Assembly: GCA_005883625.1 (NCBI GenBank)
Contig: VBDU01000080.1
Span: 41,453 to 105,452 of the forward strand
Origin: Chloroflexota bacterium
Lineage (GTDB): Bacteria; Chloroflexota; Limnocylindria; P2-11E
Reading direction: 5' to 3'
DNA length: 64,000 bases
Positions 16,394 through 32,373 of the stretch are shown one piece after another (position 1 is the first letter of the stretch; each line of letters starts with the position of its first letter). The notes under the pieces are model-generated. The model saw nothing but the letters and a program-made list of their open reading frames with translations. It searched no databases and was not told the origin of the DNA. The translations under genes were made by a program, and so were the position numbers.

Positions 16394-16486
16394 CGAGAGT
16401 GCATGGGAGTCGAACCCACCACGGAACGCAAGCGCCCCGTCAACGGTTTTGAAGACCGAGGAGCTCACCGGAGCCCCCGCACTCTC
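16394..16486 (-). tRNA. selC: tRNA-Sec (selC), anticodon UCA
   Basis: 8-bp acceptor GAGAGTGC/GCACTCTC, anticodon loop CUUCAAA, long variable arm, T-arm GGGTTCGACTCCC, discriminator G. Strong similarity to E. coli selC in the D/anticodon and T arms. Confidence 0.7.
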
Positions 16487-21734: not shown

Positions 21735-24182
21735 CTACCACCTGAACGCCAGCTGCTGGCCCATTTGTTCCACTGCAGGTTCGAGGCCCAGAACGGCTTC
21801 CAAGCCGTCCAGGCCGGCCTCCGGGCGAGTGGCCCAGGACCGCAGCGGGCCCCACTTTACGAAGCGCCAGGCTCGCCGTCGAACGAGGTCCGCGAGGGCC
21901 GGGGAACGGCGCAGCTTGACCTCGGCCAGGGGCCGGCGCTCGTCCGCGATCGCGAGGAAGCGGAAGACGCGGTCCTCGTCCGGGATGGATTCGCCGATAC
22001 CCGCCACGCTGCGGTGCAGCCGCGCCGTCCACTCGAGCTGCCAGCAGAAGACCATGCGGCCGCGGTCGTGCCACAGCACGTCCACGTACTCCAGGGCGTC
22101 GGCGGTCTGGCGCGTGAGCTGCGCGACGCGGGCGGCACGCTCGGCCTCGGTGAGGAGATCGGCGAGGACCGCGCCGCGATCGGCGAGGCCTGCGGGCAGC
22201 GCGCGCCGCTCGAGGTCGCGCCCGACGTGGACCTTGAAGCCGAGGCGCCGGCCGACGTCGACGAGCTGCGCGGCGAGGAGCGTCTGGTCGGCCTGCCGGC
22301 GCACCAGGCCGTCCTCGTCGCGCAGGCGCCACCGTCCGTCGTCGCCCTGGCGACCGTAGGCGGCGATGCACCGCTCGACGAGCTCGCGGTCGGGCGTCTC
22401 GATGCCGCGAAACAGCCCGTAGCTCCGGCGGAGGAGCGCGCGCGTCTCGACGTCGCGCGCCGACGAGAGAAGCCCCCAGACCGCCCACTCGACGCGATCG
22501 TCGAGCGGCGTCGTGTCGACCGGCTCCGTGAGCGCGTAGAGCGTCGTCTCGGCACGGTGCTCCGCGTTCGCGCCGTCGAGCGTCAGGCGTGTGATGCCGG
22601 AACGACGGCCGTCGGCGAGCGCCGAACGGAAGTGATCGAGGAACTGCTCGAGCTCCGAGACGCCGCTCGCCCGCGCGAGCGCGAGCGGCGCGAGCAGGCG
22701 CCGGGCGCCAAGGGACTCGAGCGCCGCGACCCCGGCGATGTCGGTGCCCGCGGGCTCGCCGCGCGTCACGATCGCGTCGCGCACCCCGGCGCGGATCGCG
22801 TCCTCGATCGCGGCCGCGTCCGCCGCGGGCTGATCGCGCAAGAGCGGGACGTCGCGGTCGAAGTCGCAGAGCGCCGCGGCGCCGCTTCCCCCGCCCACCG
22901 TCGCGAGTGCGTCGCGCTGGTAGACGATGCCGCGGAGGCGGTAACCCGCGCCGGCCGCGGCGAGGACGACCGCGGCGACGCTCGCCAGATCGGCATGCGG
23001 GACGTACACGACCGCGGGCGCCTCGGGACGCGAGCCGCGGTGCCCGTCGATGAGCGCGGCGCGCATCGTGCGGAGCAGGCGCTCGCGCGCAACGACGCGT
23101 CCCTCGCCAGAGTCGGGGGGCTTCACCCCCCGGCCCCCGAGAAGGACGATGCTGGCGACGGCGGCCCATCCGCCGAGCACGTCTTCGACGGGCGCCTGGC
23201 AGAGGACGAGGTCGGCGTCGCCCGCGTCGAGCGCGATGGTGCCGGCGCGAGCGCGCGCGGGCGGCGTGTGGTGCGCGAGCCATGCGACGAGCTCGCGGAC
23301 CGTGCGCTCGAACTCGAGCCACACGTTGATCTCGCGCGACTGGGCGGCGTGCGATCGGCGCGCGCGCCCCTTCTCGAGGCGGAGCGGAGAGCCGTGCCCG
23401 GCGAGCGCGTTCAGCCGGCTGCCGCCCAGGAGCACCTCGATGAAGCAGAGCTTGAGGAAGTCCGACACTCCGGGGGGTCTGAGGGGGGCGCTGCCCCCCT
23501 CAACTGTTGTCTCGATCGCGCGCAGCGTCGCCATGAGGGCGGTGAGGTTGCGCGGCGTGTAGAGCGCGGCGACGCTCTCGCCGAGGGCCTGCGCCGCGGG
23601 GTCGGGGCCGAAGCGCTCGACGAGCTGCCAGTACGCCATCCCGCGGGCCTCGCATCGGCGCGCCGACTCCGCGTCGGCATCGGTCGTGGCCTCGATCAGC
23701 AGGGCGCGGCCGTCGCGCGCGCAGATCCCGCAGCGGAACGCCTTCTTCGTCGGCGCTTGGGCGTCGCGGTCCCACAGGAACGCCTCGACGATGACCGGGC
23801 CGCGGCACGTGGCGCAGGTCGAACCGTAGAGCTCACGCATCCCGACGCGATGCGGCGTGCCGACGAGCGCGCTCTCGCCGACGCGGTCGAGCGCAGCGAG
23901 GATCTCGTCGCCGCGCGGAGCCGTCGCGACGACCAGGCGCGCCCATTCGCCGAGACGCTCCCGCGAGCGCGCGATGCCGCGCCGGTCGGCGGCCTCCGCG
24001 GCGTCGGCCGCCGACCACGGATGCCCGAGCGGGTCGAGGACGATCCCCCGACGCGGCGAGTACGCGGACGCGTAGAGCGCTGCGAGCGCCGAGGGGAAGG
24101 CGGTGCCGAAGCGGTCGAGAGGCCGCGGGAGCGGGAGCGTGTCCAGCGGGACGATGGACCGGACGCGCTCACCCTGGCTCAA
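21735..24182 (-). CDS. Large (about 815 aa) uncharacterised protein with an internal CxxC...CxxC zinc ribbon; TTG start overlapping the upstream stop (TTGA)
   Basis: CATCRGPV...[10 protein letters not shown], long non-repetitive sequence. No recognised catalytic motif. Confidence 0.5.
23114..23140. repeat. G/C hairpin repeat (CGGGGGG-CTTCA-CCCCCCG, then GCCCCCGA), inside the large hypothetical gene
   Basis: 7-bp stem. Encodes GG..PP-like peptide. Confidence 0.55.
23481..23501. repeat. G/C hairpin repeat (GAGGGGGGC-GCT-GCCCCCCTC), inside the large hypothetical gene
   Basis: 9-bp stem, 3-nt loop. Confidence 0.55.
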
Positions 24183-25993
24183 GGCAACGTGAAGAGTACG
24201 GCCCTCCTCGCGTCCACGACCACGCCGACGGTCTTCCCGTCGCGCGAGACGACGACGTCCTGCACGGTGCCGCCCGCGCCGAGCTCCTCTATCGCTCCGT
24301 CCGAAGGCGCGATCGCGATGAGCCGGTCGACCCCGTCGACCACGACCGCCCGGCGACCGACCGCGAGCCGCCGGCCGTCCGTGAACGTCGTCGTCCAGCG
24401 GCGCGAGCCGTCGGGCGCGAACGACGTGAGCGAGGTCTGATCGAGGAGGTACAGCGTCGCGTCGGTGCCGAACGCGATCTCGCGGACCGGCGACGCGAGC
24501 CGCGTCACCGTCTTCGCGTCGGCGAGCGAGACGCGATAGGTGCCCTGGTCGGTGATCGCGGCGACCGTCTTCCCGGCGCGATCGACCGTGAGCGCTCTCC
24601 CGGCCCCGGGGATCCGCGCCAGCGCGCGCAGCGCGCCGTCGCGGCCGGGCCGGAAGATCTCGACGTCGTAGCCGCCGCCGCTCGTCGTGCCGACAAGGAC
24701 GTCGCCGGCGTCGGTCACCGCGACCTGCGCGCCCGCCGCGGGCGTGACGATCGGGAAGGGGTCGCCGAGCGGCACGCCGTCCGGGGCGCGGCCGCCGATC
24801 ACCCCGGCGCCGCCGGAGGGCTCGCCCGTCGGTCCTTTTGAGGTCGCGACGAAGAGCCGCGTGGTCGGCACGAACAGGAGCTGCGTCGCCACGTTGTTGA
24901 AGCGCATCGGCGTGCCGACGACCTGCCCGGCGGGCGCCGTCAGGAACGTGAGCGTCTGGCCGCCGAGCGCGAAGAACCGAGCGTCGTCCGAGAAGGCGAG
25001 CGCGCTCATCCCGGCAAAGGACTGCGGCAGCGCGCGCAGCGTGTCGGCGGGATCGAACAGCGCGGCCTGCCCGCCGTCCGAGCCGGTGAGGATCCACGTA
25101 CCGTCGTCCGACAGGGCGATCCGGCGCGCCGCCGGGGCGCTTTCAAGGACCCGGGAGGGCTCTCGCCACAGCTCGGCGTCCGGGACGGGTCCGCTCCGCG
25201 CGAACGTGTACGACTGGTCCTGGCTCACAAGGCTCACGATCCCCTGGCTCGCGAGCTTCGCGACGACTTGGGCCGCGGCGTCTGCGTCGGGGTACGGGCC
25301 GAGACGCACGACGAACGGCGCGGTCCGCGTGAGGGCGGCGTTCTGAGGGGAGCCAATGGCCTTGAGCGCCTGTTCCGCGTCCGCGACGGTCGTGTACGGA
25401 CCGACGGTGACGGTGTGCTTCGTCGCCGCGCTCGCGGTGACCACGAACGACGTGCCCCGAGCGATCGCGCTCTCGAGGACGTCGTCACGAGGAAGCGCGG
25501 TCGACAGATCGCGCAATCGCTGCCAGCCGGCGGTGACGTGGCTGATGACCCGCGCGAACGCGGCGGGGTCGACGGCGTCGGCGTACGACTGCGCGTCTCG
25601 GCCGAGGTCGGTGAGGCCGTCGGCGAGGGTGACGAGCTTGTCGCGGATCGGGCCGGCGCGGTCCACCGCCGCCCCGACGACGCCGGCGCTATACGCGGAG
25701 ATCGTGTTCGCCGCGCCGCGCGCGACGACGCCGTAGCGCGCGGGGGTGACGGTCCGCGCCTTCGCGCTCGAGAGCGCGCCGGCGAGCCCGTAGTCGTACG
25801 CGGCGAACTGCAGGAGGATCGCGCCGGCGTCGCGCGCGAGCTTCGTGCCGGCCTCGGCGTCGCGCGACGGCGCGACCTTCAGCGGAGCTTCAGTGCACGC
25901 GCCGAAGAGGAAGATCGCAGCGATCGTGAGGATTGCGATGGCCGGGGGCGTGCGGGGGGTCCGAGGGGGGCGGAGCCCCCATCGACCGATCAC
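24179..25993 (-). CDS. Lipoprotein with SPOR-like domain and C-terminal beta-propeller (PQQ/WD40-like)
   Basis: Hydrophobic leader AIAILTIAAIFLFGAC, TVTVGPYTTVADAEQALKAIG (SPOR-like), repeated xGxxxV/TxDG blades. GTGA overlap with the upstream TPR gene. Confidence 0.6.
   Translation of the reverse strand: MIGRWGLRPPRTPRTPPAIAILTIAAIFLFGACTEAPLKVAPSRDAEAGTKLARDAGAILLQFAAYDYGLAGALSSAKARTVTPARYGVVARGAANTISAYSAGVVGAAVDRAGPIRDKLVTLADGLTDLGRDAQSYADAVDPAAFARVISHVTAGWQRLRDLSTALPRDDVLESAIARGTSFVVTASAATKHTVTVGPYTTVADAEQALKAIGSPQNAALTRTAPFVVRLGPYPDADAAAQVVAKLASQGIVSLVSQDQSYTFARSGPVPDAELWREPSRVLESAPAARRIALSDDGTWILTGSDGGQAALFDPADTLRALPQSFAGMSALAFSDDARFFALGGQTLTFLTAPAGQVVGTPMRFNNVATQLLFVPTTRLFVATSKGPTGEPSGGAGVIGGRAPDGVPLGDPFPIVTPAAGAQVAVTDAGDVLVGTTSGGGYDVEIFRPGRDGALRALARIPGAGRALTVDRAGKTVAAITDQGTYRVSLADAKTVTRLASPVREIAFGTDATLYLLDQTSLTSFAPDGSRRWTTTFTDGRRLAVGRRAVVVDGVDRLIAIAPSDGAIEELGAGGTVQDVVVSRDGKTVGVVVDARRAVLFTLP
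25955..25970. repeat. G/C hairpin repeat (GGGGGGC-GGA-GCCCCC) at the TPR/SPOR gene junction
   Basis: Preceded by GCGGGGGG. Encodes the Arg/Pro-rich leader of the SPOR lipoprotein ORF. Confidence 0.5.
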
Positions 25994-26862
25994 TCTTCGG
26001 CTTCGTCCTCCGTCTCCTCGTCCTCCTCGGCCTCGATGGCGATCGGCTCGTCGTGGGAGTCGGACTCGTCGAGCACCTCGTCGGCGGCGGGCGTCTCTTC
26101 CTCCGCCTCTTCGGCCTCTTCGGACTCGACCTCTTCGTCGGTGTCCCGGCCGTAGCGGAAGAACGTCCCGCGCACGTACGCCCGCTCCTTTGTCTCCGCG
26201 GGACGGTGGTGGCCTGGGAACGAGATCCGGCTCGCGTTCTCGGTGCTCTGGAGCACTTCGCGAATCGCGATGCGCGCGCTCTGCGGATCGGTGCTCACGA
26301 TCGCGGCGACGTACTGATTCCCCGTGCGGAGGAGGTCGATGAGGCGCCGCCCGACCTTCGGCTCGAGGAAGCCGAGGAGCTCGCCGTCGCGCGCGTGGAC
26401 GGCGAGGAGGCCTTCCTGCTCGCGGAGCTCGCACTCGGCGCCCGGGCTGTACTTCGCGAGGACGTGCGCCGGGGCGGGGTTCATGAGCCTGAGGATCCCG
26501 GTCTTCCCCATGTCCTCGATGAAGAGCCGGGGCTGCGTCCTGGTCGTCGTCGTGTTCGGCTTGCCTTTGTGCTCGAGGAGGGCGATGACGCGGGCCTGGC
26601 CGCGCAGAGCGATCGAGTTGTAGGGCTCGGTCTTCAGGACCTCGGCGAAGGACACCTTCGCATCCTCGAGCTTGCCCTGCTCGACGAGGGCGCGGCCGAG
26701 GCGGTTCCGGGCCTCGAGGTCGTCGGGCGCCGCCTCGATGATCTTGGCGTTCAGCTCGACGGCGCGGGGCCAATCGGCCTCGAGGGCTGCGGCGGTGGCC
26801 TGGTCGGCCAGGGCGCGAACGCGAAGACCTTGATCAGGGACCCGTGTCACTGGTGCCTCCAA
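25990..26862 (-). CDS. TPR-repeat protein with a highly acidic C-terminal tail
   Basis: TPR helices (LGRALVEQGKLEDAKVSFAEVLK..) and a terminal E/D-rich stretch. Confidence 0.6.
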   Translation of the reverse strand: MEAPVTRVPDQGLRVRALADQATAAALEADWPRAVELNAKIIEAAPDDLEARNRLGRALVEQGKLEDAKVSFAEVLKTEPYNSIALRGQARVIALLEHKGKPNTTTTRTQPRLFIEDMGKTGILRLMNPAPAHVLAKYSPGAECELREQEGLLAVHARDGELLGFLEPKVGRRLIDLLRTGNQYVAAIVSTDPQSARIAIREVLQSTENASRISFPGHHRPAETKERAYVRGTFFRYGRDTDEEVESEEAEEAEEETPAADEVLDESDSHDEPIAIEAEEDEETEDEAEE

Positions 26863-26916
26863 CGCATGAGGGTACGCCCGCGGGAATGGGCGCCTGGGAT
26901 ATGTCGATTGTACTTG

Positions 26917-26976
26917 CTCATCGCGGGCACGCTTCGCTGACAGGGGCCCCTGCCCCTGGGCCCCCGCACCCCCTAG
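26917..26976. repeat. GC-rich repeat element, copy A (CTCATCGCGGGCACGCTTCGCTGACAGGGGCCCCTGCC..GGGCCCCCGCACCCCCTAG)
   Basis: Near-identical to 39493-39567. Contains the self-complementary core CAGGGGCCCCTG. Confidence 0.7.
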
Positions 26977-27000
26977 TCAGCGTTTAACCTTGCGCGCGCA

Positions 27001-28254
27001 ATGCCGTATCTGTCCGAGATCCAGCACCGGACGGTGATCGAACCGAACGGCGACGAGGTGGGGAAGCTCGCGGACGTCGCGGTGGTCCCGCAGGGCCAGT
27101 TCCCCGCGGCCCAGTGGGCGATCCTCGCGACGCGGAACGGCGAGAAGGTGCTGCGCTGGGCCGACCTCGCCCCCGAGATCGGGCACTTCCGGCTGCGCTC
27201 GCGCCTCGCGAACACGCCCGACCAGCAGCTGCCGGCCGAGGCCCTCCGCCTCGCGCGCGACCTTCTCGACAAGCAGATCGTCGATACGCACGGCGCGAAG
27301 GTCGTGCGGGTGAACGACCTCCAGCTCTCGGAGGTCGAAGGCCAGCTGCGGCTGGTCGGCGCGGACGTCGGGATGCGCGGGATCTTCCGGCGGATCGGCG
27401 CGGAGCGTCTGGCCGAGCGCGCCGCCGGGATCGTCGGCCGGAAACTGCCGCGCGGGATCATCCCGTGGCACCTCGTCGAACCCCTGCAATCGGCCGACGC
27501 AGCGGTCCGTCTCACGGTGCCGCACGCGAAGCTCGCGCTCCTGCACCCCGCCGACATCGCCGACATCGTCGAGGAGATGACCGCGGACGAGCGGGTGGCC
27601 GTCTTCGAGCAGCTCGACGCCGAGACCGCGGCCGAGGCGCTCGCCGAGGTCGAGCCGGAGATGCAGGCGGCGATCGTCAGCGACCTCGACGAGGAGCGCG
27701 CCGCCGACATCCTCGAGGAGATGGACCCCGACGAGGCCGCCGACCTCCTCCAGGACCTCCCCGAGGAGCGTCGCGAGGAGCTCGTCGAGCTCATGGAGAA
27801 GGAGGAGAAGCAGGACGTCGAGGAGCTCCTCACCTACGCCGAGGACTCAGCCGGCGGGATCATGACGACCGACTACGTCGCGCTCGCCGGCGGGCTCACC
27901 GCGGCGCAGGCGATCGACGAGCTCCGCGTGCGCAAGCCCGATCCGCAGCTCACCTATTACCTCTACGTCGTGGACGACGAGGGCCGGCTCGAGGGCGTGA
28001 TCTCGCTGCGCGACCTCGTGGTAGCGCCCCCGGAGACGAAGCTGACCGCCGCGATGGATCCCCACGTGCTCAAGGTCGAGGCCGAGACCCCAAAGGAGGA
28101 GGTCGCGTCGCTCATCGCGAAGTACGACCTGCTGGCGCTCCCCGTCGTGGACGCGCGGCGCAAGCTCCTCGGCACGGTGACCGTCGACGACGTCGTCGAG
28201 CTCATGCTCCCGCGCGGCTGGAAGAAGAGGTCGCTTCGGTCGATCGCTAGGTGA
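27001..28254 (+). CDS. PRC-barrel plus MgtE N-domain plus tandem CBS protein (soluble, MgtE sensor half; no TM domain)
   Basis: PRC barrel N-terminus, acidic MgtE_N helix bundle (DEERAADILEEMDPDEAADLLQDL), CBS pair. Overlaps the downstream Nramp gene by 4 nt. Confidence 0.8.
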   Translation: MPYLSEIQHRTVIEPNGDEVGKLADVAVVPQGQFPAAQWAILATRNGEKVLRWADLAPEIGHFRLRSRLANTPDQQLPAEALRLARDLLDKQIVDTHGAKVVRVNDLQLSEVEGQLRLVGADVGMRGIFRRIGAERLAERAAGIVGRKLPRGIIPWHLVEPLQSADAAVRLTVPHAKLALLHPADIADIVEEMTADERVAVFEQLDAETAAEALAEVEPEMQAAIVSDLDEERAADILEEMDPDEAADLLQDLPEERREELVELMEKEEKQDVEELLTYAEDSAGGIMTTDYVALAGGLTAAQAIDELRVRKPDPQLTYYLYVVDDEGRLEGVISLRDLVVAPPETKLTAAMDPHVLKVEAETPKEEVASLIAKYDLLALPVVDARRKLLGTVTVDDVVELMLPRGWKKRSLRSIAR

Positions 28255-29513
28255 TCGCCACGGTCGATCGCCTCAGAACAGGGACCATCAAGCGCCGCCT
28301 CCTTCGGTTCCTCGTGATCGTCGGCCCCGGCATCGTCACCGCGCAGGCGGGAAACGATGCTGGTGGCATCGCGACGTACTCGAGCGTCGGGGCGGCGTAC
28401 GGGTATTCGCTCCTCTGGATGATGGTCGTGATCACACTGTCGCTCGGGATCGTCCAAGAGATGTGCGCCCGGATGGGCGCGGTGACCGGGAAGGGGCTCG
28501 CTGAGCTCATTCGCGAGCGCTTTGGCATCCGCTGGACGCTCGTCGCGATGTTGACCGTCCTTGTCGCGAACGGCGGGGTCGTCGTCAGCGAGTTCGCGGG
28601 CGCGGCAGCCGCGCTCGAGCTCCTCGGAGTGCAGCGCATCGTGACGGTCATCGCCGTGGCGGGCTTCGTCCTGTGGCTCGTCGCTCGCGGAAGCTACCGC
28701 GTCGCCGAGCGCGCTTTCCTCGCCATCTCTCTGGTCTTCCTGGCGTACCCCGTCACCGCGTTCCTCGCCGGTCCCCCGTGGGGCGAGGTGCTCAGAGAGA
28801 CGGCGCTCCCGTCGTTCCGTCTCGAGGGACCCTACCTCTTCCTGTTCGTGGCGACGGTCGGAACGACGATCACGCCGTACATGCAGCTGTTCGCGCAATC
28901 GGCGACCGTGGACAAGGGCGTCACCGTCCAGGAGCTCGGGGCGGCCCGCGCGGACGCCTACATCGGCGCGGTCTTCTCGAACCTCGTGGCGTATTTCATC
29001 ATCGTCGTGACCGCGACGACCCTCTACCCCCAAGGCATCACCGTCCAGACCGCCGCCGACGCCGCGCGCGCCCTCACCCCCCTCGCCGGGGAGCGCGCCG
29101 GTCTGCTGTTCGCGATCGGCCTTTTCGGCGCGTCCGTGCTCGCGGCCGCGGTCTTGCCGCTTGCGACTTCGTACACGATCTGCGGGGCGCTCGGTTGGGA
29201 GCGTCGGCTGGGCACGCGGTTCTCCGACGCTCACCAGTTCTACTCGATCATCGCGTTCCTGGTGGTGATGGGGGCCGCGATCACCCTGCTGCCCGTCCCG
29301 CTCATCCCGCTCATCGTCGGCGCGCAGGTCCTGAACGGATTCCTGCTTCCGGTGATCCTCATCTTCATCTTGCGGCTCGTGAACGACCGCTCGCTCATGG
29401 GCGAGCACGTCAATGGTCCCGTCTATAACGTGCTGGCGTGGGGTACGACCGTGTTCATCGGGGCGCTGTCACTGATCCTGCTCGGCGTCACTTTCCTCGG
29501 TCTGGGCGGCTGA
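28251..29513 (+). CDS. Nramp/SLC11-family transporter with non-canonical metal site (DAGG / TPY in place of DPGN / MPH)
   Basis: GPGIVTAQAGNDAGGIATYSSVGAAYG (TM1) and GTTITPYMQLFAQS (TM6) align to the canonical DPGN and MPH motifs. Confidence 0.8.
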   Translation: MIATVDRLRTGTIKRRLLRFLVIVGPGIVTAQAGNDAGGIATYSSVGAAYGYSLLWMMVVITLSLGIVQEMCARMGAVTGKGLAELIRERFGIRWTLVAMLTVLVANGGVVVSEFAGAAAALELLGVQRIVTVIAVAGFVLWLVARGSYRVAERAFLAISLVFLAYPVTAFLAGPPWGEVLRETALPSFRLEGPYLFLFVATVGTTITPYMQLFAQSATVDKGVTVQELGAARADAYIGAVFSNLVAYFIIVVTATTLYPQGITVQTAADAARALTPLAGERAGLLFAIGLFGASVLAAAVLPLATSYTICGALGWERRLGTRFSDAHQFYSIIAFLVVMGAAITLLPVPLIPLIVGAQVLNGFLLPVILIFILRLVNDRSLMGEHVNGPVYNVLAWGTTVFIGALSLILLGVTFLGLGG

Positions 29514-29571
29514 GTGCGGAGCGTGCCGCTGCGTAGGCACGTCAGAGCCGGCCGAGAGGAGTGATTCCGGC

Positions 29572-30936
29572 TCAGCCCCCGCGGCCGCCTGCGATCGCGG
29601 TGTAAGCGAGTCCCACCGCCGCGAGCCACAGACCGATCGTCGCGAGCCAGCCGAGGACCGCGAGTACCGGCCCGATGCGCTGCTCGCCCATGACTTTTGG
29701 GTTTCGGGCCGCGAGCATGATCAAGACCAGCAGCGGCGGCGCGACGATCCCGTTGACGATCGCGGTATCGAAGAGCGCGTCGACCGGGTTGATGCCGATA
29801 AAGTTCATCGCGATCCCGATCCCCGTCGCGAGGGCGATCACACCGTAGAAGGGCTTTGCCCGGCTCCAATGGGTCTCCAGGCCATAACGCCAGCCGAAGG
29901 CCTCGGCGATGGCGTACGCAGCTGAGCCGGAGAGGATCGGGACCGCGAGGATACCGGCGCCGATCATGCCCGCAGCGAAAAGGATGCCGGCGAAGTCGCC
30001 GGCCAGCGGCCGCAAGGCCTCGGCGGCGTCCGCCGCGCTCTTGATGTCGGTCTTGCCGGCGCGAAAGAGCGTGAGCGCGGTGGCGAGGATGATGAAGTAC
30101 ATCACGAGATTCGAGAAGGCCATCCCGACATTCACGTCGATCGTCGAATAGCGGATCTCGGCCGGAGTAGCACCCTGGCGAGATTCGCGCGTCGTGCGGC
30201 CCATCTCGATCTCCTCCTCGACCTCCTCGCTGGACTGCCAGAAGAAGAGATACGGCGAGATGGTCGTGCCGAGGATCGCGAGGAGGGCGGCCAGGTACGT
30301 CGGGCCGAGGCTGAACGTCGGAATGACCGTCGCCCGTAGCGTCTCGAAGAGGTCGGGACGCACGATGAACGCATCGATCACGTAGGCGAACAGGGCCAGC
30401 GTCAGCCACTTGAACGTGTTGGCGATGAGCCGGTAGCTGCCGAAGATCTGGAGCGCCAAGATACCGAGGGCGACCGGAACGACGAGCCAGACCGCCCGAA
30501 CGCCGGTCAACGAGTCCACGGAGTCGGCGATCGCGCCGAGGTCGGCCCCGACGTTGATGGTGTTCGCGATGAAGAGCAGGAGCACCGAGCCGTAGAGCAG
30601 CGGGCGAGGGTAGTGCTCGCGGAGCACGCCCGCGAGGCCGGCCCCCGAGACCATCCCGACGCGGGCGCAGATGTTCTGGACCGCGGCCATGAGCGGGAAG
30701 GTGAGCAGCGCCGTCCAAAGCGTCTGCAACCCGAGCGTCGCGCCGGCGACCGCATATGTGCCGATGCCGCTCGGATCGTCATCAGACGCGCCGGTGATGA
30801 AGCCAGGTCCAAGGATCTTGCCGATCTTCTTGGCCGGATTGGTCTCGGATCCGATCTCGGCGGCAGTGCCTGCCGTCGCACCGGACGGAGGCGAGTGCGG
30901 GATGACGCGACGGCGAGGTCTCTCGCTCGCGGGCAA
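29572..30936 (-). CDS. Second Nramp/SLC11-family transporter, also non-canonical (DPSG / SPY)
   Basis: GPGFITGASDDDPSGIGTYAVAGA and GTTISPYLFFWQSS. Convergent with the first Nramp gene. Confidence 0.8.
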   Translation of the reverse strand: MPASERPRRRVIPHSPPSGATAGTAAEIGSETNPAKKIGKILGPGFITGASDDDPSGIGTYAVAGATLGLQTLWTALLTFPLMAAVQNICARVGMVSGAGLAGVLREHYPRPLLYGSVLLLFIANTINVGADLGAIADSVDSLTGVRAVWLVVPVALGILALQIFGSYRLIANTFKWLTLALFAYVIDAFIVRPDLFETLRATVIPTFSLGPTYLAALLAILGTTISPYLFFWQSSEEVEEEIEMGRTTRESRQGATPAEIRYSTIDVNVGMAFSNLVMYFIILATALTLFRAGKTDIKSAADAAEALRPLAGDFAGILFAAGMIGAGILAVPILSGSAAYAIAEAFGWRYGLETHWSRAKPFYGVIALATGIGIAMNFIGINPVDALFDTAIVNGIVAPPLLVLIMLAARNPKVMGEQRIGPVLAVLGWLATIGLWLAAVGLAYTAIAGGRGG

Positions 30937-31164
30937 CCTCGCCTAGGCTCCTTTCCGCGTCTGGACCACCGCGGCACACAGGAAGACGTCGGCGCTTCTG
31001 CGAGCCGTTTTGCGTTCGTTCGCGTCGCGGTCAGGTTGACCAGACATCCCCACGTCGGCGATGGTCACCATGCAGAGCGAATACCAGTTCCGGCTGGTCT
31101 CGTCGCGGTGACAGTCCTTGGCTCTAGGTGGCGCGGACCGTACGAGACGTGCGACGCTAGCGCC

Positions 31165-32373
31165 GTGCGACGGCTCGGGGTCCTCGCGCTCGTCTTCGTG
31201 ACCGCCGCGTGCGCCGCGAGACCCGCGCCGACCCCGGCACCACCGTCTTCGTCGCCAACACCGACCGTCGCCGTCGCGACCGGCAGCCCCGCGCCGACGG
31301 CCTCGCCGTCGCCGACCGTGCCGCCCTCGAGCATCAAGTTCGGCCTCGTCGTCGCGGACGCGAGCTCGCTCACGTTCCGACTGCGGCTCGAGAGCGAGGC
31401 CGAGCCCTTCGCCTCGCTCGACGGATCGCTCGCCACCGTCTCGCCCGATGGCCGACGGCTCGCGTACTGGCACCGCGACGCCGGGACGAACGGGACGCAG
31501 GACGACCTGCGGATCCTCGATCTCTTCACCGGAACGCAGTCGCAGATCGTCCGTTTGCAGAACGAGCGCGCCGCGGGCGTCGCGTGGCGCGACGACGCGG
31601 GGGGGCTGCTGTACGCCGCGGCGTCGCCGAACATCGCGGGTGGCGGCGTCGATCCGCCACCGGTCTACACGGCGGTCCGGATCGTGAACTTCGCGACGAA
31701 CCAGGTCAGTGAGGTGAAGCGGCTCGACGCGGCACGCTTCGTCCCGCTTACGTGGCGCGTGACGACGCACGTCCTCTCCGGCGTGAACGCGGGCGAGGGC
31801 GGCGTGCGCACGATCTATCGCTTCAAGGAGGACGGCACGACCGCGGGCGACTCGCCCGCGGACCGCCGCTTCAACGAGGTCGTCGACACGACGCGCGACG
31901 GGACCGCCATCCTCGGCCAGTTCGCGTACGGAGAAGGCGGCAAGACCTTCAGCGGGATCCGGGTCGTCGCGGCCGACGACCCGCGGCCGCTCGCCGAGCG
32001 CGAGCCGCCGGCGGGCGCCTTCCTCGTCCGCGCGCGGTTCCGCGCGGCGACGAGCGATGTCGTCGCGCTCCTTCGGGCGGGCGATCCCTCGCGCTACGTC
32101 ATCGAGCTCTGGCCCACCGGCGTCGGCATCGCGCCGCGCCGCGTGTGGACCGGGACCACGGCGACCGCGGCCAGCGGCGAGCTCCTCGTCCGGTTCGACG
32201 GGAAGGTCGCGTACGTGCGGACCGACGAGTCCGGCACCGGGGTCGGGACCTGGCAGACCGTCGACCTCGAAAGCGGCGCGGGCCTTCAGCTGGCGACGGG
32301 TCAGAACGCGATACCGCGCGGGCCGTCCTTCCTCGTGACCGACGACGCGGTCGCGAAGCTGCGTAAGCCGTAG
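31165..32373 (+). CDS. Secreted lipoprotein of unknown function (Pro/Thr/Ser-rich linker, then beta-rich domain)
   Basis: GTG start. Lipobox LVFVTAAC. Non-repetitive 400-aa body. Confidence 0.5.
   Translation: MRRLGVLALVFVTAACAARPAPTPAPPSSSPTPTVAVATGSPAPTASPSPTVPPSSIKFGLVVADASSLTFRLRLESEAEPFASLDGSLATVSPDGRRLAYWHRDAGTNGTQDDLRILDLFTGTQSQIVRLQNERAAGVAWRDDAGGLLYAAASPNIAGGGVDPPPVYTAVRIVNFATNQVSEVKRLDAARFVPLTWRVTTHVLSGVNAGEGGVRTIYRFKEDGTTAGDSPADRRFNEVVDTTRDGTAILGQFAYGEGGKTFSGIRVVAADDPRPLAEREPPAGAFLVRARFRAATSDVVALLRAGDPSRYVIELWPTGVGIAPRRVWTGTTATAASGELLVRFDGKVAYVRTDESGTGVGTWQTVDLESGAGLQLATGQNAIPRGPSFLVTDDAVAKLRKP

Follow-up and report, generated by a model that had tools for sequence, protein, structure and literature searches.

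A probable NrmT-type operon of a soluble PRC-MgtE_N-CBS protein and an Nramp-related transporter in a Limnocylindria genome, and the recurrence of this gene pairing across phyla

The DNA analyzed here is a 64,000-nucleotide stretch of contig VBDU01000080.1 (assembly GCA_005883625.1, positions 41,453 to 105,452 of the forward strand) from a Chloroflexota bacterium of the Candidatus Limnocylindria, and this whole stretch is referred to below as the window. Within it lie three genes, termed A, B and C (Table 1), of which A encodes a soluble protein that resembles the cytoplasmic part of the Mg2+ channel MgtE while B and C encode two homologues of Nramp metal transporters. All three open reading frames (ORFs) were confirmed in the ORF list of the window, and the gene calls for A, B and C are identical on three public metagenome contigs that carry an identical protein A. 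The names given to identical or near-identical database proteins point to a soil member of this lineage. The junction of A and B reads ...GCTAGGTGATCGCC..., with the stop codon of A (TGA, 28252-28254) and the start codon of B (GTG, 28251-28253) forming a 4-nucleotide overlap. An original prediction made from the sequence alone had described a translational overlap of this length between a protein lacking transmembrane (TM) segments and the first Nramp homologue, and both the GTGA junction and the ORF coordinates agree with it. The GTG is probably the true start of B, since the ORF contains no earlier start codon, offers no plausible in-frame alternative before TM1 and begins there in the public gene calls.

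Table 1. Features of the A-B-C locus, numbered from the first letter of the window (aa, amino acids; TtMgtE, MgtE of Thermus thermophilus; NRMT, Nramp-related magnesium transporter).
Feature	Position	Strand	Description
Gene A	27001-28254	+	Soluble partner, 417 aa; architecture PRC - PRC - MgtE_N - CBS - CBS - basic tail
Tandem PRC-barrel region of A	27001-27525	+	Residues 1-78 and 79-175; Pfam PRC, hhalign
MgtE_N (residues 181-282) and CBS pair (residues 285-402) of A	27541-28206	+	Acidic equivalents of TtMgtE Mg2+-site residues
Basic C-terminal tail of A	28207-28251	+	LPRGWKKRSLRSIAR; replaces acidic MgtE plug helix and TM domain
GTGA overlap, B start codon on A stop codon	28251-28254	+	
Gene B	28251-29513	+	NRMT-type (type I) Nramp-related transporter, 420 aa
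Gene C	29572-30936	-	Type II Nramp-related paralogue, 454 aa; convergent with B; no partner gene

Protein A matches the Pfam families MgtE_N (E 1.3e-30) and CBS (two domains, E 1.1e-16) and, in two stretches across residues 1-175, Pfam PRC (PF05239; 29.5 bits against a gathering score of 21.2). Hydrophobic segments are lacking, with 19-residue Kyte-Doolittle means of at most 1.13, and together the Pfam and hydrophobicity results bear out the predicted TM-less protein with PRC, MgtE_N and a pair of CBS domains. Comparison of the two N-terminal stretches by hhalign, using an alignment of 63 partners, gave a probability of 91% (E 1e-6) and thus indicates an internal PRC repeat, the second copy of which contains an insertion of ~22 residues in A. 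The best solved relative of the C-terminal 240 residues is the cytosolic domain of TtMgtE (2yvy; E 2e-46, ~41% identity). However, where MgtE continues into an acidic plug helix and the pore domain PF01769, A has neither and ends 15 residues after the second CBS domain with the basic tail listed in Table 1; the match to the TIGR00400 profile, at 198 bits, falls short of the cutoff of 232.75 and extends over no more than profile positions 26-251 of 450. Basic tails akin to that of A (W[KR][KRQ]RLPRLF, RRKRRK) are found in many partners of other phyla. An AlphaFold (AF2) model of A, based on a shallow alignment of homologues with at least 78% identity, has a mean predicted local distance difference test score (pLDDT) of 68 that rises to 80-93 in the MgtE_N and CBS parts, and superposes on Mg2+-bound 2YVY with a template modelling score of 0.80 and a root-mean-square deviation of 2.7 Å over 230 columns. 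The first PRC barrel is modelled as all-beta with a pLDDT of about 70-86, and the second barrel is of low confidence.

The equivalents of Mg2+-site residues were mapped by HMMER alignment of A to TtMgtE, with the Mg2+-site mutants taken from PMC5882242 and D95 included in addition. All six equivalents are acidic in A, namely E212 (E59 in TtMgtE), D244 (D91), D248 (D95), D376 (D226), D397 (D247) and E400 (D250). Conservation was then counted over A and 63 partners from other species (n=64). The equivalent of D95, which we take to be a Mg2+ ligand of MgtE, is Asp in 63 of the 64 proteins; D247 is kept in 56 and D91 in 51, and the positions of E59 and D250 are acidic in 55 and 45, respectively. 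The ATP ligands of TtMgtE include Y170, R187, D188, N203 and F227 (PMC5529423), and the first three of these are kept in A as Y320, R337 and D338.

Both transporters belong to the Pfam family Nramp (PF01566), B with an E value of 7.6e-94 and 10 hydrophobic segments and C with an E value of 2.2e-78 and 9 such segments (19-residue Kyte-Doolittle windows). The metal site of canonical Nramp/MntH (SLC11) proteins, DPGN together with A/CxxMPH, is absent from both: B has NDAGG/TTITPY, within AGNDAGGIA in TM1 and GTTITPY in TM6, and C has DDPSG/TTISPY, within SDDDPSGIG and GTTISPY. Altered TM1/TM6 motifs (DAGG/TPY and DPSG/SPY) had been pointed out from the sequence and are indeed present, and they are not peculiar to this locus, since they are the consensus of two large subfamilies described below. 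The published NRMT site replaces DxxN and A/CxxM by DxxG on helix 1 and TxxA/T on helix 6 (PMC8806188), and B fits this signature exactly with D36xxG39 (D-A-G-G) and T205xxT208 (T-T-I-T). Additionally, B has the TM3 Glu and has TM10 Gln359 in the column of EleNRMT Q379, a helix 10 residue that is needed for transport (PMC8806188). The best solved relative of B is EleNRMT (7QIA; E 4.6e-103, 349 bits, 402 residues aligned), as compared to about 87 bits (about 1e-23) for the best canonical MntH, and the NCBIfam MntH scores of 137 bits for B and 99 bits for C fall well short of the cutoff of 430. Membership of B in the NRMT clade is therefore supported at the level of sequence. EleNRMT transports Mg2+ and Mn2+, not Ca2+, without H+ coupling (Ramanadane et al. 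2022, PMC8806188), and the T224A exchange of its TM6 Thr abolishes Mg2+ transport (PMC8806188); by homology, B would be expected to be a H+-independent Mg2+/Mn2+ uniporter.

A search with B against 1.84 billion cluster representatives returned 809 clusters at E<=1e-30, and a motif table of the full-length matches resolves two large subfamilies. Type I, with the consensus NDAGG ... GTTI[A/T/S]P[W/Y]MQFY, includes B and EleNRMT, and type II, with the consensus DDDP[S/A]G ... GTTI[S/T]PYLFFWQ, includes C ('DDDPSG / GTTISPYLFFWQ'). Neighbour-joining trees with DraNramp and BfraNramp as the root place B together with EleNRMT in an all-type-I clade of 27 sequences, from which C is excluded in 41/50 and 30/40 bootstrap replicates; the clade that holds C has 39 sequences, 35 being type II. 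The identity of C to B is 38%, and its match to EleNRMT (7qia; E 8e-55, 190 bits) exceeds that to MntH (77 bits). The TM1 motif of C is D-P-S-G and its TM6 motif T-T-I-S, a TxxS pattern outside the published TxxA/T wording, and it has Asp in the TM3 Glu column and Ala in the EleNRMT Q379 column, where type II proteins divide into 18 with Gln and 17 with Ala. Just after the TM6 metal-site break, type II proteins carry a near-invariant PYLFFWQxSxEVEE (residues 228-241 of C, window about 30214-30255, minus strand) in which W233 and E240 are invariant and Q234 and E238 are conserved in at least 90%; the motif forms a conserved cytoplasmic acidic cluster. Relative to EleNRMT, C also has an insertion of ~13 residues (about residues 242-254) right after this motif, in the TM6-TM7 loop.

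The view that both Nramp homologues belong to the NRMT clade thus held for B, given its bit scores, its DxxG/TxxT signature and its clade with EleNRMT, and went too far for C, which lies in a separate subfamily with Ala in the Gln379 column and, as described below, with a partner gene at 1 of 80 loci. A confident assignment to the NRMTs is possible for B alone; C is not shown to be one by its sequence. Most likely C is an independent paralogue from a separate Nramp-related subfamily that works without A, and its presumed substrate is a divalent cation that is coordinated differently (TxxS, TM3 Asp, no TM10 Gln). The locus also flags a large Nramp-related subfamily, type II, that has no assigned substrate.

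Recurrence of the A-B pairing was analyzed with the type I alignment as query against one genome per GTDB species, which gave 80 loci from 80 species that span Acidobacteriota, Chloroflexota, Nitrospirota, Desulfobacterota (Syntrophus, Smithella), Bacillota, Planctomycetota, the candidate phyla radiation (CPR/Patescibacteria) and archaea. Six-frame ORFs of these loci were searched against the two halves of A within 4 kb. A TM-less MgtE_N-CBS ORF was present within this distance at 66/80 loci, or 66 of the 78 that are evaluable when two loci without any upstream sequence are set aside; at the other 12 evaluable loci a partner was not found within 4 kb. The partners are always on the transporter's strand and nearly always immediately upstream, they occur whichever residue (Ala, Thr or Ser) stands at the NRMT Met position, and the PRC region is matched in full by every partner that is not truncated at a contig end. 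Of 60 pairs in which the gap from partner stop to NRMT start was estimated, 28 have at most 36 nt, and these include five ATGA overlaps. When 80 type II loci from metagenomes were put through the same analysis, a MgtE_N-CBS ORF was seen at a single locus (1/80), on the opposite strand. The association of an MgtE_N-CBS gene with an Nramp-type gene, as originally proposed for this locus, is thus a recurrent one, and the contrast of 66/80 with 1/80 indicates that the pairing is specific to the EleNRMT-type subfamily, far beyond chance. Furthermore, the partner gene of three Bacillota loci (L031, L062 and L070) is immediately preceded by an M-box riboswitch (108-133 bits), which ties this operon type to Mg2+ homeostasis.

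A conserved partner of another kind was sought for type II by clustering the neighbours at the 80 loci and was rejected, with the most frequent neighbours being only Crp/Fnr-like regulators (10/80), response regulators (8/80) and DedA-like proteins (8/80). A candidate Rosetta-stone fusion (P0290), with CBS and Nramp parts in one polypeptide, was also discarded as an artefact of read-through at a contig end, in which the linker is junk and the C-terminus frameshifted, and the other long representatives had no informative extra domains.

Individual type I loci exhibit further arrangements. In a Chloroflexota metagenome-assembled genome (MAG), PRC-MgtE_N-CBS genes flank the NRMT gene on both sides (L021), and at another locus (L036) the partner lies downstream of the NRMT gene and not upstream. 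A second Chloroflexota MAG (L076:1109-5245) has, on one strand, a PRC-MgtE_N-CBS partner, then a full-length MgtE and then a type I NRMT, the middle gene being a canonical MgtE with MgtE_N, CBS and the PF01769 pore (E 1e-30). In an Eubacteriales MAG (L062:1592-5239), the gene that lies after the M-box and directly before the NRMT gene encodes PRC-MgtE_N-CBS domains that continue into a hydrophobic C-terminal stretch of 209 aa; this stretch has five hydrophobic segments and only a weak PF01769 match (E 0.1), and such a partner may stand midway between an MgtE channel with PRC barrels and the soluble partners. A contig labelled Candidatus Saccharimonadales (L071:2709-5281, DATJHW010000067.1) encodes a partner that is 74% identical to A, with an almost identical tail, while its NRMT, joined by an ATGA overlap, is only 48% identical to B; in other Chloroflexota pairs the partner is about 45% and the transporter 50-55% identical to A and B. 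This suggests either an exchange of the transporter downstream of a conserved partner or a mis-binned or chimeric contig. In three Syntrophales/Smithella loci, borderline PyrR-binding-site matches (54-59 bits, gathering 54; L033:2487-2589, L058:2430-2534 and L072:2410-2512, all minus strand) lie shortly upstream of the partner gene, on the strand opposite to it, and probably belong to a divergent pyr gene.

Much of this picture has precedent. Shin et al. 2014 named NrmT, reported that most NrmT genes adjoin a gene for MgtE cytoplasmic domains, and proposed feedback regulation in trans by the MgtE-like fragment (PMC4072509). They found that the C. acetobutylicum NrmT rescues a Mg2+-transport-deficient B. 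subtilis, and concluded that high-affinity Mg2+ transport occurs in only a subset of NrmT proteins (PMC4072509). An M-box leader is a subset marker of Mg2+ specificity. The NRMT identity of B-like proteins, the partner association and the regulatory hypothesis are therefore already known, and the trans-gating idea of the original prediction is a correct re-derivation of the 2014 proposal and is not new. Work on the function of the partner published later than 2014 did not turn up in full-text literature searches, and the partner goes unmentioned in the 2022 EleNRMT paper. The term 'PRC-barrel' was not found in the full text of Shin et al. 2014, and the PRC barrels and basic tail of the partner are not described in the searchable literature. 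Our additions are modest, and are comparative rather than specific to this locus: the near-universal tandem PRC barrels, the basic tail, the conservation of the Mg2+ clamp, and the contrast between type I and type II in having a partner.

We propose that A and B form an NrmT-type operon as described by Shin et al. 2014. In this operon, B would be a LeuT-fold, probably H+-independent uniporter that imports Mg2+ and, like EleNRMT, very likely also Mn2+. A would be its cognate soluble subunit, a copy of the cytoplasmic Mg2+ sensor of MgtE that has lost the pore domain, starts with two PRC barrels and ends in a short basic tail. Like MgtE, A probably dimerizes by its CBS domains, and it would bind B from the cytoplasmic side; since A is missing the MgtE plug helix, the PRC barrels, the basic tail or both are proposed to make the contact. 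High cytosolic Mg2+ would then close A into its compact Mg2+-bound form and inhibit transport, and the outcome would be protein-level feedback in an organism whose operon has no M-box. Taken as a whole, an NrmT operon with A as the Mg2+-sensing subunit of B is the explanation that we favor with moderate confidence; the inhibitory gating of B by A in trans is, as a separate element, evenly balanced in our estimation, and Mg2+ selectivity of B is presumed from its relatives. We are more tentative, and place the prospects a little short of even, about the wider proposal that the PRC-PRC-MgtE_N-CBS protein is an obligate separate Mg2+ gate for a LeuT-fold uniporter, docking by PRC barrels and tail, with C being constitutively active for a different cation. 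If this wider proposal is true, the regulatory half of one Mg2+ channel family would be reused in trans by an unrelated transporter family, and two-component Mg2+ uptake would be widespread in Acidobacteriota, Chloroflexota, Nitrospirota, Desulfobacterota, Bacillota, CPR and some archaea.

Several observations weigh against A being a Mg2+-sensing subunit of B. The A. capsulatum transporter Acp2977, which forms a riboswitch-less pair with Acp2976, rescued Mn2+ uptake fully and Mg2+ uptake partly and only at millimolar Mg2+, and in the one test published, the fragment changed nothing when Acp2976 and Acp2977 were co-expressed in B. subtilis (PMC4072509); rescue that is mostly of Mn2+ means that having a partner does not prove Mg2+ specificity. 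Among the partners, the equivalent of D226 is Asn in 48/64. In A, the adenine-stacking F227 of TtMgtE is replaced by Leu377 and N203 by Asp353, and since the F227A exchange abolishes ATP binding in MgtE (PMC5529423), nucleotide binding by A is uncertain and its modulation by nucleotide may have been lost. The AF2 model of A is poor at residues 83-175 and in the tail, which are the parts proposed to dock, and no conclusions on a docking surface are drawn from it. Lastly, an M-box (RF00380) was found neither in the window at the gathering threshold nor over 26400-31600 at E<=5.

Some of these points also suit a different account in which B is mainly a Mn2+ (transition-metal) importer and A senses Mn2+ or another signal and not Mg2+. 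The behavior of Acp2977, which likewise lies downstream of an MgtE-like fragment and is without a riboswitch, is as this account would have it (PMC4072509), as are the Mn2+ transport by EleNRMT (PMC8806188) and the lack of an M-box in the window. Position 208 of B is also Thr where EleNRMT has Ala, although TxxA and TxxT are both accepted NRMT signatures (PMC8806188). A Mn2+ importer is harder to reconcile with the full NRMT signature of B, including the TM6 Thr that is critical for Mg2+ (T224A, PMC8806188), with the MgtE Mg2+-clamp residues kept in A, and with homologous Bacillota PRC-partner/NRMT operons that are under Mg2+ riboswitches; we consider it rather unlikely while granting it appreciable weight. 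Alternatively, A could be linked to B without being an inhibitory gate, acting instead as an activator, as an assembly or stability factor, or as a cytoplasmic metal acceptor or chaperone that receives the ion from B. The retained residues argue otherwise in that they constitute an interdomain Mg2+ clamp, which drives a conformational switch and is not a transfer site; moreover, the same module is an inhibitory sensor in MgtE, where the millimolar affinity of the sites would be ill-suited to chaperoning. On the other hand, a metal chaperone was an alternative raised by Shin et al. 2014, co-expression neither reduced nor enhanced rescue (PMC4072509), NrmT proteins transport without a partner in heterologous hosts and proteoliposomes (PMC4072509, PMC8806188), and A is without the plug helix by which the sensor of MgtE is coupled to the pore. 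In our judgement a role of A other than gating is improbable.

That the adjacency of A and B has no functional meaning, with A an independent CBS-domain protein, would be compatible with the lack of direct interaction evidence and with the 12/78 evaluable type I loci at which a partner was not found within 4 kb. It is already strongly disfavored by same-strand adjacency in 66/80 species over many phyla as against 1/80 in the sister subfamily, and by the start/stop overlaps and shared M-box leaders, and we hold it to be highly improbable. For the preferred explanation, with A as the Mg2+-sensing subunit of B, the kept Mg2+ clamp, the tandem PRC barrels, the replacement of the plug helix by a basic tail and the M-box leaders of Bacillota provide concrete handles for testing trans-gating. 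The A-B locus by itself adds no new principle and makes trans-gating no easier to test than any other NrmT operon; it is the comparative work that sharpens the question, raised in 2014, of what role the MgtE-like partner has.

Riboswitch control of the A-B operon was considered and rejected, with no M-box or other Rfam family near A, B or C. A sigma-70 promoter scan over 26400-31600 gave no promoter-like site, and an intrinsic terminator scan of the same interval gave a single terminator-like site, which is within the count expected by chance. The 58-nt spacer of the convergent genes B and C contains an inverted repeat, GAGCCGG...CCGGCTC, at window 29545-29573 (7-bp arms, 15-nt loop), the right arm of which overlaps the C stop codon and which is without a T-run; it may be a shared hairpin terminator for B and C. 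Three consecutive genes divergent from A (window 21735-26850, minus strand) encode products of 815, 604 and 286 aa that have no confident Pfam family in public records, with a faint SPOR match on the 604-aa product only and a long acidic tail at the end of the 286-aa product. The sole Rfam gathering-level match in the 64-kb window is a selenocysteine tRNA at 16395-16486 on the minus strand (tRNA-Sec, 75 bits, E 1.3e-13), which implies selenoprotein synthesis in this Limnocylindria lineage.

For completeness, we compare the three genes with known systems. The MgtE channel of T. thermophilus (PDB 2YVY/2YVX/2ZY9/5X9G) shares with A the N domain and CBS pair in the same fold at ~41% identity, as well as counterparts of D95 and of the residues at sites Mg4, Mg5 and Mg7. 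However, MgtE combines the N domain, the CBS pair and the five-helix pore (PF01769) in one polypeptide, whereas A is without pore and plug helix, has two extra PRC barrels and a basic tail and, if it is a regulator, acts in trans on an unrelated LeuT-fold carrier. Separately encoded control of this kind is established in the Ktr and Trk systems, in which the soluble gating rings KtrA and TrkA control KtrB and TrkH by a proven interaction. As proposed for A and B, KtrA and TrkA are cytoplasmic ligand-sensing subunits of a membrane transporter encoded by genes of their own; their RCK fold is unrelated to the MgtE_N, CBS and PRC domains of A, and the interaction that is proven for them is hypothetical for A-B. 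EleNRMT of Eggerthella lenta (PDB 7QIA/7QIC/7QJI/7QJJ) has the same TM1 NDAGG, TM6 Thr and TM10 Gln as B and differs in having GTTIAPW for the GTTITPY of B (Thr for Ala227 and Tyr for Trp), and the work on it was done without any partner protein while B has the adjoining partner gene A. As for C, Cellier keeps an 'orphan' outgroup apart from the NRMT group within PF01566, and C is like this outgroup and the groups of a 2026 BfraNramp preprint in belonging to PF01566 outside the canonical Nramps and lacking the DPGN/MPH and proton-pathway signature. C itself is closer to EleNRMT than to MntH and yet in a clade of its own. The closest counterparts of A-B are the NrmT operons of Shin et al. 2014 (the Ca_c0685 operon and Acp2976/Acp2977), in which the transporter also lies immediately downstream of a gene for a TM-less MgtE cytoplasmic domain. 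In having no M-box, A-B resembles the A. capsulatum pair, while the Clostridium operon has one; A-B differs from the 2014 operons in that its partner is a single gene that is not split, in that the partner they call 'small' has ~420 aa with tandem PRC barrels here and at 63 other loci, and in its host, which is a Ca. Limnocylindria bacterium (Chloroflexota) and not C. acetobutylicum or A. capsulatum. With these differences, the A-B locus is very probably a member of the known class in which an NrmT transporter is paired with an MgtE fragment.

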